From Patescibacteria group bacterium (lineage in GTDB: Bacteria > Patescibacteriota > Patescibacteriia > Magasanikbacterales > GWA2-37-8): a stretch of 64,000 nucleotides of DNA. Shown here in pieces: positions 10,702 through 54,828 of this stretch. Within the stretch, counting starts at the first letter, position 1, and every line of letters begins with the position of its first letter. The notes under the pieces are model-generated. The model worked only from the letters and a program-made list of their open reading frames with translations. It was not told the origin of the DNA and did no database searches. A program made the translations under genes and the position numbers. The stretch lies in assembly GCA_041649475.1 (NCBI GenBank), contig JBAZNA010000001.1, positions 686,594-750,593 on the forward strand, written 5' to 3'.

Positions 10702-10769
10702 GACAAAAAAACGCCCAAGACCGTACGTGCGGCCAAGGGCGCTGAAGCCGGGTGTCTCTCGTCACCTGA

Positions 10770-11171
10770 CTACTGTTCCTCCTTGGGGATGAACTGAAGG
10801 TTGAGTGGCTTGTCCTTGTGGTTGGTCTCTACCAGATCCACGCCGATCCACTTGCCCTTCTTCTCCACGTGGAGCTTCGCAACCACGTGAAGGTCTGAAC
10901 CAGAAGTGGAGACGTGGACTTCTTCCTCCAATCCTGCCACACTCCACCTCATACTTCGTAGGACGATCTGCCCCTGTTGAGTCAGTGCCTGCGCCCACAT
11001 GAAGTCCGACAACAGCGGGCTGTCTGCTTCTGGGGGCTTGTCCAGACAGTAGATGAGTAGCATGTTTTCCTTCACACCATCCCACATTACTCGCTGGACT
11101 TGTAGCCCGGCGAGTTCAACCCTCCGGGCTGTATTCATGGTTTCCGACCTCTCTGTCCATCTTAGGGACAA
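10770..11171 (-). CDS. Hypothetical protein encoded in GC-rich cassette (likely start at 11138, 122 aa)
   Basis: ORF in a ~0.5 kb segment with GC content and codon usage far above the flanks. Upstream are TTGAAA-17-TATATT and a GAGAGG RBS 9 nt before the internal ATG (M12). Hairpin terminators flank it on both sides. No recognisable domain. Confidence 0.4.
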   Translation of the reverse strand: MSLRWTERSETMNTARRVELAGLQVQRVMWDGVKENMLLIYCLDKPPEADSPLLSDFMWAQALTQQGQIVLRSMRWSVAGLEEEVHVSTSGSDLHVVAKLHVEKKGKWIGVDLVETNHKDKPLNLQFIPKEEQ

Positions 11172-11188
11172 AGTAATATATCACAAAA

Positions 11189-11210
11189 CCACCCTTTTTT
11201 CAAGGGGTGG
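11189..11210 (-). terminator. Rho-independent terminator of the 728-aa gene (hairpin ccaccc/gggtgg followed by a T-run on the minus strand)
   Basis: 6-bp GC stem with loop TTGAAAAAA, followed by TTTTGTGATAT on the minus strand. The loop overlaps the -35 of the next cassette gene. Confidence 0.5.
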
Positions 11211-11238
11211 CCTGTGGATAAGGTTTTAAGCAATAAAA

Positions 11239-13425
11239 CTAGGCGGCCTTAAGCTTACGCTTTTTCGCAGTAGCTGGCTTATTTTTCTCCAGCAAAGCGT
11301 CTAAATCTGCCATAACCGTATCAAAATCTTTTTCATCTAAAAATCCTTCCTCTTCGGTGACCACCACAAAACGGCCGCCCTGATCTTCTCTAATTGTAAA
11401 ATTCAAAACCTGATCTAGTTTGCGCAGCGCTGACTCAATTTGTTTTGCTTTATCAATCCCCGCTTCTGATTTTGCCATGGCTTTTTTATGTTCTACCAAC
11501 CTATCACCGGTATTTGCCCTGTCCACTCTGGCGGAAACAATCCTGGCTCCGGTGCCGGGCAAGACCCCTTTTACGTCAAATAATAATTCAGCGTCAACCA
11601 AATGAGTCGGCAAAGCCAAAGTCAATTCGTCTCCGCCCACTTTGCCAAGAAATAGATCCTCCCCTTTGGCCAGTTTTTTCTTTTTTAACAACTCGGTGAT
11701 ATTTTGTCTGAATAATCGTAATCTTTCGGTCAGTTGGTCGCTGGCTTTTAAAACATTCTCTTGGAAGACCTTAACCTGTTCTTCTTCCGGTAAATTTTCC
11801 ACTTCCTCCAGCAACTGCTCATAATTTAAAAGTTGATCAACCCCGACATCAAGCAAATCAATACTTAAAATTGTGCAGTCATCAATTTTTAAAGCCCGGC
11901 TGGTAAATTCGTCATCGGAAGTGTACAGTTCTGATTTTTCACTTGATCTTAATGTTTTCACGACTTCCTGCCGTGTTTTGAGAGATGCCAACTTTCCTTT
12001 ATCTTTAATATCGCCGGCAAATTCCTGATTTTTTGATAATTTTTCCGTCAAAGTTGACCCGTCCGCCAATTTTTTACCTTCTATCTCGCCGGCAGTATGC
12101 GGTTTAACAAAATCCATCAAATTCAGCATGCGGTAATATAAAGTGAGCTTATCAAACAGAGCCGAATCTTGCGCGTGCAACTTGTCTTTTCTGACATCCC
12201 GAAGCAAATCCTTATTTAACGACCGGACACCATTTTTAATTTCAAAAATTTGGCGCTCTTCACCTTCCTCCGTGCGCACGGTATTTGTTGCCATTATTTC
12301 TTTACCCAACTTCGAGAAATTTTTTACAGATCGCAAAACCGCCGCATCAAAGTCCCCTTCTTGGCCTTCAAAAATTTTATAATCCGCCAAACCCAAACTT
12401 TCCGCCAGCCGGTGAATTTCCATTGCCCGGCTTAACACTGATGATTTTGCCACCGACAGGGCAATCTCTTTATTTATATTTTTTTCATCTGCTTCACCAA
12501 CCTCGCTCACCCCCGCATTGAGCCGGTAGCCGACACCCCTGAACTGTTCTTCAAATTCATCCAAAATTTGCTTCTTGGCTTTGCCTTCAGGCGTTTTTTT
12601 GTATGTTTTTAATAATTTATATATAAAACCTTCCTGTTCTCCGTTTTCTCCGGCCATGGCTTCATTCACCCCGGCGCTTATCTCACTAATAATTTCATTA
12701 ACATTTATTCCGGCTTCAACCAATTTAGCATTCGTTGTCTTGTCTATTTTTAAAACGCTGTTTTTATAGTCCTGGGCCAAAACTAAATTATCTATCTGTG
12801 CTTCATCCAGCTCGGGCAAACTTTTCAGTAAAACTTTTTTAAACTGGTCTTTTAAAATATTCCTGCCGGCAATTAACATTTCATCAACATGGCTCTGGCC
12901 GAAAACAACGTCATTTAGATGTTTAATTGTCAAAAATTTATCAGCCGGGACGGAAATGTTTATAACCACATCTCCCGGCTCCAGATTGCCGTAAACATTG
13001 CCCCAATCGCGCCGTTCAAGCATGGAAGCGGTCATCTTTTTTTCCTTATCATCCAAAATTTCACCTGTTTCCAGTTTCGCAAAAGCAATTTCAGCTGCGC
13101 CCGTTTTACGTTCTGTCTGACGCTGTTCGGCCGGGTTTACCCAATCCGGCCCCTTCATGGTCTCATGATATATCGCCTCGTTTTCCGCGTTCACCAATAA
13201 ATCAACTATTTCCATTTTAATGCCGTTTAGCTCGTCCATTTCCTCTTTATTCAATTTTAAAAATTCGGTCAGTTGCGCTTTAAGCGCCTCGTAGTGGCCA
13301 TTTAATTCTTTAGAATATTTTTCCACCATCGCCAAAAGCTCCCTGGCCTGCTCTTCGGCAGTCGGTTTGGCCGATTTAGGAACTGTTTGCTCTGATTCGT
13401 TTTTGGCAATCGCTTCTTTTCTCAT
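11239..13425 (-). CDS. Large (728 aa) coiled-coil protein with C-terminal divergent GGDEF-like palm motif
   Basis: Long K/E-rich helical N-terminal two-thirds. The C-terminal region (CTILSIDLLDVGVD...GEDLFLGKVGGDELTLALPTH) resembles the GGDEF core (IDIDHFKxIND ... RYGGEEFvvlLPnT) with a helical insertion. Last gene of a 4-gene operon; its start overlaps ORF 13422..13751 by 4 nt. Confidence 0.45.
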   Translation of the reverse strand: MRKEAIAKNESEQTVPKSAKPTAEEQARELLAMVEKYSKELNGHYEALKAQLTEFLKLNKEEMDELNGIKMEIVDLLVNAENEAIYHETMKGPDWVNPAEQRQTERKTGAAEIAFAKLETGEILDDKEKKMTASMLERRDWGNVYGNLEPGDVVINISVPADKFLTIKHLNDVVFGQSHVDEMLIAGRNILKDQFKKVLLKSLPELDEAQIDNLVLAQDYKNSVLKIDKTTNAKLVEAGINVNEIISEISAGVNEAMAGENGEQEGFIYKLLKTYKKTPEGKAKKQILDEFEEQFRGVGYRLNAGVSEVGEADEKNINKEIALSVAKSSVLSRAMEIHRLAESLGLADYKIFEGQEGDFDAAVLRSVKNFSKLGKEIMATNTVRTEEGEERQIFEIKNGVRSLNKDLLRDVRKDKLHAQDSALFDKLTLYYRMLNLMDFVKPHTAGEIEGKKLADGSTLTEKLSKNQEFAGDIKDKGKLASLKTRQEVVKTLRSSEKSELYTSDDEFTSRALKIDDCTILSIDLLDVGVDQLLNYEQLLEEVENLPEEEQVKVFQENVLKASDQLTERLRLFRQNITELLKKKKLAKGEDLFLGKVGGDELTLALPTHLVDAELLFDVKGVLPGTGARIVSARVDRANTGDRLVEHKKAMAKSEAGIDKAKQIESALRKLDQVLNFTIREDQGGRFVVVTEEEGFLDEKDFDTVMADLDALLEKNKPATAKKRKLKAA

Positions 13426-53673: not shown

Positions 53674-53746
53674 GCGGGCTGTAGCGAAGTTGGTATCGCG
53701 CATCGTTCGGGACGATGAGGCCGCGGGTTCAAGTCCCGCCAGCCCG
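53674..53746 (+). tRNA. tRNA-Pro (anticodon CGG), CCA not encoded
   Basis: Acceptor CGGGCTG/CAGCCCG, D-arm GCGA-AGTTGGTA-TCGC, anticodon stem CATCG/CGATG with loop UUCGGGA, T-arm GCGGG-TTCAAGT-CCCGC. Confidence 0.85.
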
Positions 53747-53765
53747 ACGGGAAGGAGGCAAAGCA

Positions 53766-54029
53766 ATGCGTATTCCTTGTCCACGACCGCCCAGGTCGAT
53801 TCAAGATGAGGTTAAGGTTCATGAAGCAATCAGGGACGCCAAGGCCAATTCCAGGCTGATCTTCGTCGTTGAAGTCAATCCGAAAACGCACGAAGTGTCG
53901 GCTAACGCGTACTGGCCGGCTGCCCTGCCCGGATGGGAAAAGGAATATTCCCTTCTCGGGGAGCTCAAGAAGATGGCCGTTTCGGTCTGGCGCAAGGTCA
54001 GCAGGAAGCAAAACAATGCGCAAGCATAG
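53766..54029 (+). CDS. Hypothetical protein (87 aa) in GC-rich cassette
   Basis: Strong RBS GGAAGGAGG 8 nt upstream of the ATG, directly abutting the tRNA-Pro 3' end. GC-rich; no domain recognised. Confidence 0.4.
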   Translation: MRIPCPRPPRSIQDEVKVHEAIRDAKANSRLIFVVEVNPKTHEVSANAYWPAALPGWEKEYSLLGELKKMAVSVWRKVSRKQNNAQA

Positions 54030-54116
54030 CGGAGGGGTGTTCGCGAACTCACCAAAAAAGTTCGCTTTTTTGTTTAAAAAATGAGCAGTTTATAGAGATG
54101 CTCCGCTCTTTTCTGG

Positions 54117-54716
54117 TTACTTCTTCGTGGGCTTCTGGCCCACACGCATGTCCTTCACATCCGCCTCCACTCCGACCTCCAGGGTATTCGGCTTGACCGA
54201 GAAGATCTCCTCCTGTTTGATCTTCACCCCAGGCACAGTGACGGCGACAGCCGGTTCTTCCAGCATCGCCTCCTTGTTTGGGTCTTCAACGATTCTGACA
54301 AAGCGCTTGAGGCCCATCTTCTTGAGCGCCTTGATCACCGCCTTCTTGTCGCGCAGGTGCACCGAAGGCGGATTGAGACGCCATCCGAAACTGCCGGTTG
54401 GCACCTGGATGGTCTTGGTCTTGCCGCCCTCGGTCAGCGTCTCGCGGTTCGCGTCGGCGAAGATGAAGAGACCCCGTACCAGGCCGGCAATGGTCCGGTT
54501 GTGAGACGAGGCGAAGGCCATCGCCTTCTTCTGCAAGACCGCTACCCCGTCATTTAAGACATTCTCGATCGAGTTGATCTCCCTCTGCTCCGCGGCGATG
54601 CGAGTCAGTATGTTAGCCGCCTCAACCAGGTTTTCCGGAATATATACTTCATAGTCCGGCTTAGCAGGCATCTTCACCTGATGAGGTGCTTTATCCACGA
54701 TCTTTTTCTTGGCCAT
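54117..54716 (-). CDS. gam: Phage Mu Gam-like host-nuclease inhibitor / DNA-end binding protein
   Basis: ETLTEGGKTKTIQVPTGSFGWRLNPPSVHLRDKKAVIKALKKMGLKRFVRIVEDPNKEAMLEEP aligns closely, by memory, with Mu Gam (DELTNGGKVKTANLVTGDVSWRVRPPSVSIRG...LGLQRFIRTKQEINKEAILLEP). GC-rich; RBS GGAGGG. Confidence 0.7.
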   Translation of the reverse strand: MAKKKIVDKAPHQVKMPAKPDYEVYIPENLVEAANILTRIAAEQREINSIENVLNDGVAVLQKKAMAFASSHNRTIAGLVRGLFIFADANRETLTEGGKTKTIQVPTGSFGWRLNPPSVHLRDKKAVIKALKKMGLKRFVRIVEDPNKEAMLEEPAVAVTVPGVKIKQEEIFSVKPNTLEVGVEADVKDMRVGQKPTKK

Positions 54717-54828
54717 GATTGCCCTCCATGGGCATAATCTAGCTTATCCGCGAAATTTTAGCAAGCTGCCGACCAACAAACAAAAAAGCCCTTATGGGGC
54801 CATTTTATTTTAAAAATCAGACCAATAT

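Follow-up and report, generated by a model that had tools for sequence, protein, structure and literature searches.

The islets and their composition

The window analysed here is a stretch of 64,000 nucleotides (nt) of contig JBAZNA010000001.1 (assembly GCA_041649475.1, positions 686,594 to 750,593 of the forward strand). It is cellular DNA from the metagenome-assembled genome of a Magasanikbacteria-like member of the Patescibacteria and encodes, among others, a valyl-tRNA synthetase, MurG, a PilT-like ATPase and a translin-family protein. Four short segments rich in guanine and cytosine (GC) are embedded in it. We refer to these as islets C1 (10702-11238, minus strand), C2 (30620-31284), C3 (38243-39349, plus strand) and C4 (53749-54828). 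Together they carry five open reading frames (ORFs) and two RNA candidates.

The overall GC content of the window is 0.431. In a 400-bp sliding frame, GC peaks at 0.585 in C2 (30.8-31.2 kb), 0.632 in C3 (38.8-39.2 kb) and 0.590 in C4 (54.2-54.6 kb), and at only 0.527 in C1 (10.8-11.2 kb). Maximal values are 0.645, 0.65 and 0.64 for C2, C3 and C4, respectively. With frames of 200 bp, C1 does not exceed 0.58 and so resembles some peaks in host DNA (0.59 at 4.05-4.32 kb and at 9.6-9.85 kb). Since its peak is no higher than a few of these host peaks, C1 is the weakest of the islets by bulk GC.

A preliminary description of this DNA, made by eye, had proposed that the four segments are richer in GC than their flanks and use different codons. 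This is confirmed at the level of individual genes: composition is not uniform along the window and the islet ORFs are outliers in GC content at third codon positions (GC3). GC3 is 0.69 for the C1 ORF (z = 3.2 relative to host genes), 0.87 for C2, 0.89 for C3, and 0.64 and 0.76 for the two ORFs of C4 (C4a and C4b, the latter encoding a Gam homologue), compared with 0.455 +/- 0.073 (standard deviation) and a maximum of 0.616 for 64 host ORFs. The five islet ORFs thus occupy the top five places among the 69 genes of the window. Codon choice follows the same pattern. Lysine is encoded by AAG in 92% of cases in the islet ORFs versus 22% in the host, and leucine by CTC or CTG in 79% versus 21%. It is mainly the coding sequences and RNA candidates that are GC-rich, whereas promoters and spacers in the islets resemble the host in being AT-rich.

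We also considered the possibility that the adjacent genes for transfer RNAs (tRNAs), tRNA-Thr(cgt) and tRNA-Pro(cgg), serve the codons of the islets. This was rejected: use of ACG is equal (0.21 versus 0.18) and CCG is commoner in the host (0.61) than in the islets (0.43).

Gene content of the islets

C1 extends from intergenic to intergenic DNA between a VTT/DedA-domain gene (9985-10701) and a gene for a protein of 728 amino acids (11239-13425), and no tRNA gene adjoins it. It carries a single orphan gene encoding 122 amino acids (10770-11138, minus strand), preceded by a promoter-like site TTGAAA-17-TATATT with a TG extension (11175-11203, minus strand; 10/12 matches) and followed, as read from the sequence, by a hairpin and T-run after the stop codon. 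A search of 1.84 billion cluster representatives with this protein returned its own cluster and two weak matches to giant proteins with immunoglobulin (Ig) repeats. The proteins of C1, C2 and C4a have no match in Pfam, PHROG, NCBIfam or PADLOC. AlphaFold2 models of C1 and C4a are too poor to use (predicted local distance difference test, pLDDT, of 36 and 54, respectively).

C2 is located directly 3' of the host gene for tRNA-Thr(cgt) (31285-31358, minus strand; ARAGORN and Rfam) and includes an ORF and a convergent small RNA (sRNA) candidate. The ORF encodes 102 amino acids (30743-31051, plus strand), behind a promoter-like site TTGACA-17-TAAAGT (30691-30719, plus strand; 10/12 matches), which is conserved in a sister species (see below), and a ribosome-binding site, GAAGGAGAGG. 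The protein is a lineage-restricted orphan: among 5.8 billion proteins its only homologue is P0127 of the sister species, with 77% identity. Sequence searches of the PDB with C2 and C4a returned only noise.

The sRNA candidate (31090-31253, minus strand) is an addition to the preliminary description. It is GC-rich, about 150 nt long, and has a promoter-like site directly after tRNA-Thr (TTGACA-17-TACAGT, running from 31275 to 31247; 10/12 matches). A predicted bidirectional intrinsic terminator (31098-31130), in which a G+C-rich hairpin is flanked by an A-run and, on the opposite side, a T-run, would serve both the ORF and the sRNA candidate and shows 100% conservation in the sister species. 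The sRNA candidate has a fold z-score of -5.06, and none of 200 shuffled sequences folds as well. Conservation of the candidate is stronger than that of the adjoining ORF, with about 5 differences in 97 nt of its core (approximately 95% conserved). It has no Rfam match, a permissive search giving only noise, and a covariance model found no further copy in 1.55 Mb of related loci. It is the better-supported of the two RNA candidates.

C3 follows the host gene for tRNA-Lys(ttt) (38169-38242, plus strand; tRNA prediction and Rfam). It consists, in order, of the terminator of tRNA-Lys (38249-38274), a promoter-like site (TTGACC-17-TAAAAT; 10/12 matches), a candidate non-coding RNA (ncRNA) of about 270 nt (38330-38600), which together with the site occupies 38295-38600 (plus strand), and a gene for an inosine monophosphate (IMP) cyclohydrolase. 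The ncRNA candidate ends in a 9-bp hairpin with a T-run and has a fold z-score of -2.84. It has no Rfam match at E <= 10 beyond noise; in the whole window only tRNAs attain the gathering score of a known family (Rfam 15). Homologous DNA is absent from all related loci compared. The candidate is weakly supported, and the segment could instead be leftover donor DNA. A type III toxin-antitoxin arrangement was also considered for C3 and rejected: there are no tandem repeats in 38200-38700 and the ORF is a metabolic enzyme.

This enzyme (38673-39248, plus strand; 191 amino acids) matches the Pfam profiles MGS (4.6e-23) and AICARFT_IMPCHas (positions 1-58) and covers positions 2-188 of the 511 positions of TIGR00355 (purH). 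It does not include the transformylase domain for 5-aminoimidazole-4-carboxamide ribonucleotide (AICAR). When aligned with residues 7-195 of human ATIC, the motifs GR(L/V)KTLHP, NLYPF, EQIDIGG and RAAAKNH are intact; we take the active-site residues of ATIC to be Lys66, Tyr104, Asp125 and Lys137. Patescibacteria are usually regarded as lacking de novo purine synthesis. There is a very large set of stand-alone homologues of about 195 amino acids, and identity does not exceed 65% outside the sister species. The protein had initially been described as an isolated IMP-cyclohydrolase domain of PurH. The identification stands, but with its widespread architecture of about 195 amino acids and its intact motifs it is predicted to be a complete stand-alone enzyme and not a fragment. 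Such stand-alone enzymes are designated PurH2 and have been characterised in archaea (PMC6797443). The C3 protein resembles these, PurH2 of cyanophage P-SSM7 and ForH (PDB 6nko) in consisting of an MGS-fold domain of approximately 190-200 amino acids alone, with active-site motifs retained and without the AICAR transformylase domain. It differs in being encoded as a GC island and in a member of the Patescibacteria. On the other side of tRNA-Lys, and adjoining it, is the gene for the translin-family protein (37510-38088, minus strand; PF01997, 2.3e-17), here in a bacterial genome.

C4 contains two convergent genes. It is directly preceded by the gene for tRNA-Pro(cgg) (53675-53748, plus strand; tRNA prediction and Rfam), which has a promoter TTGAAA-17-TATAAT (53635-53663, plus strand; 11/12 matches). 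C4a (53766-54029, plus strand; 87 amino acids) starts 18 nt after the tRNA, behind the ribosome-binding site GGAAGGAGG. Reading of the sequence reveals neither a promoter of its own nor a terminator between tRNA-Pro and C4a and, because it has no promoter, C4a is probably co-transcribed with the tRNA. C4a is a conserved partner of the second gene (54117-54716, minus strand), which encodes a DNA-end-binding protein of the Mu Gam family with 199 amino acids. This matches PF07352 over positions 3-149 of 149 (9.4e-33; 113.7 bits against a cutoff of 28.3), phrog_491 (8.9e-38) and PDB 2p2u (8e-9). It is 37.5% identical to Gam of phage Mu, and its best identity outside the sister species is at most 49%. 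The full-length domain match is shared with Mu Gam and bacterial Ku-like DNA-end-binding proteins (PF07352; PDB 2p2u). Unlike Gam of phage Mu, however, it is encoded by a solitary chromosomal gene, with no Mu-like prophage, and is paired with an orphan of 87 amino acids.

The next-closest Gam homologue (49% amino acid identity; locus L087, 9693-10561) is located directly downstream of two tRNA-Met genes. It fits its GC-rich genome (0.56), with a GC3 of 0.67 against 0.59-0.84. At the edge of C4 is a host gene (54829-55257, minus strand) for a coiled-coil protein with repeated DKRFDQ(I/V) units. Its counterpart in the sister species is reduced to 91 amino acids and is only 56% identical, and the gene is therefore changing fast.

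The initial proposal that the segments encode a Mu Gam-like protein, three small proteins of unknown type and an ncRNA candidate is borne out, and the segments do look foreign in composition, self-contained and without relation to the backbone. As to the proposal that each has its own promoter or strong ribosome-binding site together with terminators, sites with 10/12 matches are present for C1, C2 and the C3 ncRNA candidate; C4a has no promoter of its own and starts behind a ribosome-binding site.

Junctions and conservation in a sister species

The compositional borders of the islets are sharp and the genome is metagenome-assembled, so that foreign DNA joined by chimeric assembly or contamination, which the preliminary description had allowed for, must be considered. 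A Logan contig from an independent assembly (L001, SRR8542065) is 100% identical to positions 53719-55096 of the window and crosses both junctions of C4. Other sequencing runs contain C2 and C4 in diverged form (77-88% amino acid identity) within the same host surroundings, and the cyclohydrolase gene is found in AT-rich context in unrelated projects as well. We regard an assembly artefact as practically excluded.

The sister species is represented by contigs from runs SRR25490521-549, with host genes 83-86% identical in nucleotide sequence to those of the window; the comparison covers the C2 and C4 loci. On contigs L093 and L094, C2 is about 83% identical at the nucleotide level from window position 30644 onward and adjoins the synthetase gene and the same tRNA-Thr, which is identical and in the same place. 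On contigs L082-L086, C4 is 78-81% identical. The alignment ends at window position 53752, and the genes for Gam (73% amino acid identity) and C4a (88%) are found beside the host genes of window positions 54829-57000. Islet GC in the sister species is approximately 0.57 against 0.35 in the surroundings, and GC3 is the same or nearly so in the two species (0.87 and 0.87 for C2; 0.76 and 0.77 for Gam). The ratio of nonsynonymous to synonymous divergence (dN/dS) is 0.30 for Gam, 0.14 for C4a and 0.58 for C2. Judged from these comparisons, C2 and C4 are held by purifying selection, and at least these two islets appear to be older than the split from the sister species. A recent insertion is contradicted for these two islets, the same segments being present in a relative.

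The outer edges of both islets differ between the species. For C2, the neighbour is an ORF of 153 amino acids in the window (30156-30617) and an NYN-domain gene in the sister species. For C4, tRNA-Pro borders the islet in the window, and a HAD-like gene takes this place in the sister species, where no tRNA was detected on contigs L082-L086 and C4a trails the HAD-like gene in the fashion of an operon. Since neighbouring genes differ, the islets are situated at synteny breakpoints and, since tRNA-Pro is missing at the sister C4, the position of C4 beside a tRNA gene was not inherited by both species from their common ancestor.

Other searches for relatives reached further afield. Among the GTDB species representatives, the neighbourhood of the valyl-tRNA synthetase gene identified relatives with at most 69% amino acid identity and with synteny lost, the synthetase being closest to those of Candidatus Magasanikbacteria MAGs, and a metagenome scan with MurG identified only relatives of 53-62%, the sister species not being among them.

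Position downstream of tRNA genes

As initially noted, three of the four islets abut tRNA genes: C2, C3 and C4 are each directly 3' of a tRNA gene (Thr, Lys and Pro, respectively). By a rough, post hoc estimate, which counts 5 of about 74 intergenic gaps as lying 3' of a tRNA gene, the probability that three of four islets occupy such sites by chance is about 0.001. This raises the possibility that the islets are the last remnants of integrative elements that targeted tRNA genes and from which later deletions removed both the integrase and the distal attachment (att) repeat. Two observations in relatives are in keeping with this. In a distant relative, L099, murG and tRNA-Lys(ttt) are adjacent, 52 bp apart, with no cyclohydrolase gene or anything else between them (the tRNA gene is in the opposite orientation and the contig ends there). 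At locus L095, a GC-rich remnant of about 190 bp is enclosed by a direct repeat of 27 nt (96%) that corresponds to the 3' end of tRNA-Asp. The two copies (1690-1716 and 1880-1906) are located beside a cyclohydrolase homologue and look like an att-type scar, which indicates that tRNA-directed integration does occur in this group.

Other observations speak against it. ORF listing and a Pfam scan agree with the initial statement that no integrase is present: among the ORFs of at least 30 amino acids in the four islets (the credible ones scanned against Pfam) there is no integrase or recombinase. A repeat search and local alignment showed none of the islets to be bounded by a second, directly repeated copy of a tRNA 3' end. 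When alignments of the tRNA 3' halves to the distal boundary were scored against 2000 random window positions, a fraction of 0.49 of these scored at least as well for tRNA-Thr and 0.41 for tRNA-Pro. For tRNA-Lys the fraction is 0.023, uncorrected, but this concerns an internal match of 11/12 nt that does not reach the terminus of the tRNA. C1 has no tRNA, and on sister contig L084 C4 follows a HAD-like gene, away from tRNA-Pro. Nor is a general association of GC islands with tRNA genes seen in related loci: in about 1.2 Mb (80 related loci plus others) there are 31 GC islands, of which only 2 are tRNA-adjacent (224 and 247 bp away), a further 3 being flagged only by overlap with a tRNA gene.

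The islets thus resemble tRNA-integrating islands in their place 3' of tRNA genes and in their atypical composition, but differ from them in having no integrase, att repeats or mobility genes and in that one of the adjacencies is not conserved. We consider integrative remnants unlikely; the idea is kept as a less probable account of how the islets entered and does not describe the present content. The earlier suggestion of decayed tRNA-integrating remnants is accordingly not upheld, and neither is its alternative, minimal cassettes of a distinct kind: no sequence, boundary motif or repeat is common to the four islets. The two RNA candidates, too, share no sequence.

Possible phage affinities

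The preliminary description had also speculated that the segments form an anti-defence or phage-derived accessory set. A related possibility is that they are prophage remnants. Gam is a Mu-family protein (with the identity to Mu Gam and the phrog_491 match given above), the stand-alone cyclohydrolase falls within phrog_30501, a PurH2 is known from cyanophage P-SSM7, and the small, individually promoted orphan genes are of a kind that would fit. Other phage genes, however, are absent around every islet, and four of the five proteins have no close relatives in 2.9 million viral contigs. Searches of 50,697 phage records (tblastn) gave no match to the C1 or C2 protein, and PADLOC matches none of the islet proteins. 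In addition, the islets are scattered over 44 kb, and C2 and C4 are stably inherited. A phage or anti-defence set is, in our opinion, highly improbable.

Persistence of the GC richness

The less ordinary aspect of the islets is the persistence of their composition. One gene family, that of the cyclohydrolase, stands out as a sharp island of high GC in several AT-rich genomes that are unrelated, and two islets keep a GC3 of 0.76-0.87 in two species despite substantial synonymous divergence of the neighbouring genes. Six more AT-rich assemblies, which represent at least five organisms, show the cyclohydrolase gene as a GC island of one gene. Its GC3 is 0.91 beside neighbours of 0.50-0.62 at locus L089, 0.83 beside 0.43-0.66 at L095, 0.72 beside 0.19-0.31 at L096 and L097 (the same organism) and 0.66 beside 0.40-0.52 at L090. 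At L092 the GC content is 0.65-0.72 beside neighbours of 0.30-0.40.

Loci L089 and L095 are syntenic, both being arranged as L35-L20-cyclohydrolase-tRNA-Asp. The ribosomal-protein genes of the two loci show 67-76% identity and are saturated at synonymous sites (synonymous divergence, dS, of 1.2-1.3), with a GC3 of 0.62; the cyclohydrolases are 65% identical in amino acid sequence and their genes keep a GC3 of 0.93 and 0.84, respectively, in this comparison. Neutral decay at host rates would here require an ancestral GC3 above 1 (by a two-state estimate from small samples). A syntenic pair with saturated neighbours implies that the GC richness persists beyond neutral amelioration. The two loci have in common, in addition, a conserved element of about 100 nt downstream of rplT and upstream of the cyclohydrolase gene (L089, 5560-5700; L095, 640-790). 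A promoter-like site and a terminator mark its limits, and it may be a small RNA.

Comparison with the sister species points in the same direction. Synonymous differences that exchange GC for AT, or the reverse, number 7 of 72 in C2 (26.6% expected from flanking host genes; P = 0.0004) and 23 of 135 in Gam (26.3% expected; P = 0.008), in both cases fewer than expected. C2 and Gam have dS values of 0.22 and 0.51, respectively, compared with 0.41-0.99 in flanking host genes. It is possible, if doubtful at present, that GC richness in these genes is actively maintained and is not the fading trace of a donor, which would be compatible with lateral origin. It could be kept by selection on synonymous sites or on properties of the mRNA, by gene conversion biased towards GC, or by recurrent replacement out of a common GC-rich gene pool that circulates among Patescibacteria. 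In the same tentative sense, small GC-rich genes in AT-rich Patescibacteria might represent a stable genomic compartment in which GC is actively kept, with the cyclohydrolase as the clearest recurrent case.

Several points argue against maintenance. The neighbour-joining tree of the cyclohydrolases is star-like (distances of 0.36-0.43, with the window protein in a loose group of eight), and the island copy L092 is nearest to one from a uniformly GC-rich genome, so that independent acquisitions are possible. Later exchange between the two lineages could give both the low dS and the same deficit of GC-AT differences. The samples are small (72-135 codons) and C4a has no significant deficit (P = 0.22). 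One mechanism that was considered, an antisense gene conserved opposite the cyclohydrolase gene, does not account for the high GC and is excluded: its frame is open only where GC3 is at least 0.89 and is broken in L095, L090 and L096.

A locus in two Peribacteria genomes provides a contrast. Loci L070 and L073 are 86% identical in nucleotide sequence over 20.4 kb up to a GC-rich gene (20221-21340 in L070 and 20271-21570 in L073), whose products are only 29% identical. GC3 of this gene is 0.87 and 0.82, respectively, and the genomes have a GC content of 0.38. This suggests a hypervariable GC-rich islet at a fixed locus, with allele replacement from a GC-rich pool.

Other compositional islands

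The window also includes an island of the opposite type (25600-29035), which is AT-rich, with a GC content of 0.28-0.32 and a GC3 of 0.28-0.33. It carries genes for a restriction endonuclease of the MvaI/BcnI family (26885-27691), an N4/N6 DNA methyltransferase (27694-28467) and an HNH protein (28556-29035), all on the minus strand. Among the related loci, GC-rich islands with orphan ORFs (GC3 of 0.7-0.96) are present in L006, L011, L020, L024, L033, L035, L042, L049 and others, with three in 22 kb of L020. These orphan ORFs show no relationship among themselves or with the islets of the window.

Origin of the islets

The explanation that we favour, and consider probable, is that these are four independent and old islets of one or two genes each, laterally acquired, domesticated and placed at flexible intergenic sites. 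The four do not form a joint working system. DNA from GC-richer gene pools would have been acquired on four separate occasions, in two cases with a small-RNA candidate, and would have landed in intergenic sites of unstable gene order, three of them directly downstream of tRNA genes. Entry could have been by illegitimate or tRNA-anchored recombination after DNA uptake, or by integrative elements lost long ago. Domestication would mean that the coding sequences came to be expressed from AT-rich signals of host type: C1, C2 and the Gam gene from their own putative promoters and C4a by read-through from tRNA-Pro, all with apparently strong ribosome-binding sites and hairpin terminators.

The biochemical activities, like the lateral origin and the entry route, are those we infer. 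To judge from homology, Gam would bind and protect double-stranded DNA ends, and the enzyme of 191 amino acids would convert FAICAR (the ribonucleotide of 5-formamidoimidazole-4-carboxamide) to IMP.

Lateral acquisition is consistent with the patchy distribution of the genes, C1, C2 and C4a being orphans, and with the frequency of similar GC islands in related genomes. A genome with a uniform GC content of 0.68 carries a close stand-alone cyclohydrolase, P0043, and this is the nearest neighbour of L092 in the tree, which makes GC-rich bacteria plausible donors. Patescibacteria genomes are known to contain hundreds of genomic islands and transferred genes (PMC12455944). The islets described here are similar to these in being short, atypical and patchily distributed segments with accessory or orphan genes in streamlined genomes. 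They differ in being unusually small (0.5-1.1 kb), in having a GC3 of up to 0.89 against 0.46, in being common to a sister species and in showing no visible amelioration.

Certain observations weigh against this explanation. No donor of an islet was identified and the nearest homologues are distant, so that the transfers must either be old or have come from lineages not yet sampled. In the first case, neutral decay hardly accounts for the GC3 that has been kept, or for the shortage of GC-AT synonymous differences in C2 and Gam. A tRNA-linked mechanism may have operated without leaving a trace. In addition, the explanation rests on 64 kb of a 963-kb genome.

If the islets are ordinary products of lateral transfer, they add to the known lateral gain of accessory genes by the ultra-small Patescibacteria, the gains in this case being a protein that would protect DNA ends and the last enzyme of purine synthesis. 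If, instead, their GC richness is maintained, GC-based identification of 'recent' transfer would be misleading in Patescibacteria, and an unrecognised force acting on synonymous sites would need to be explained.

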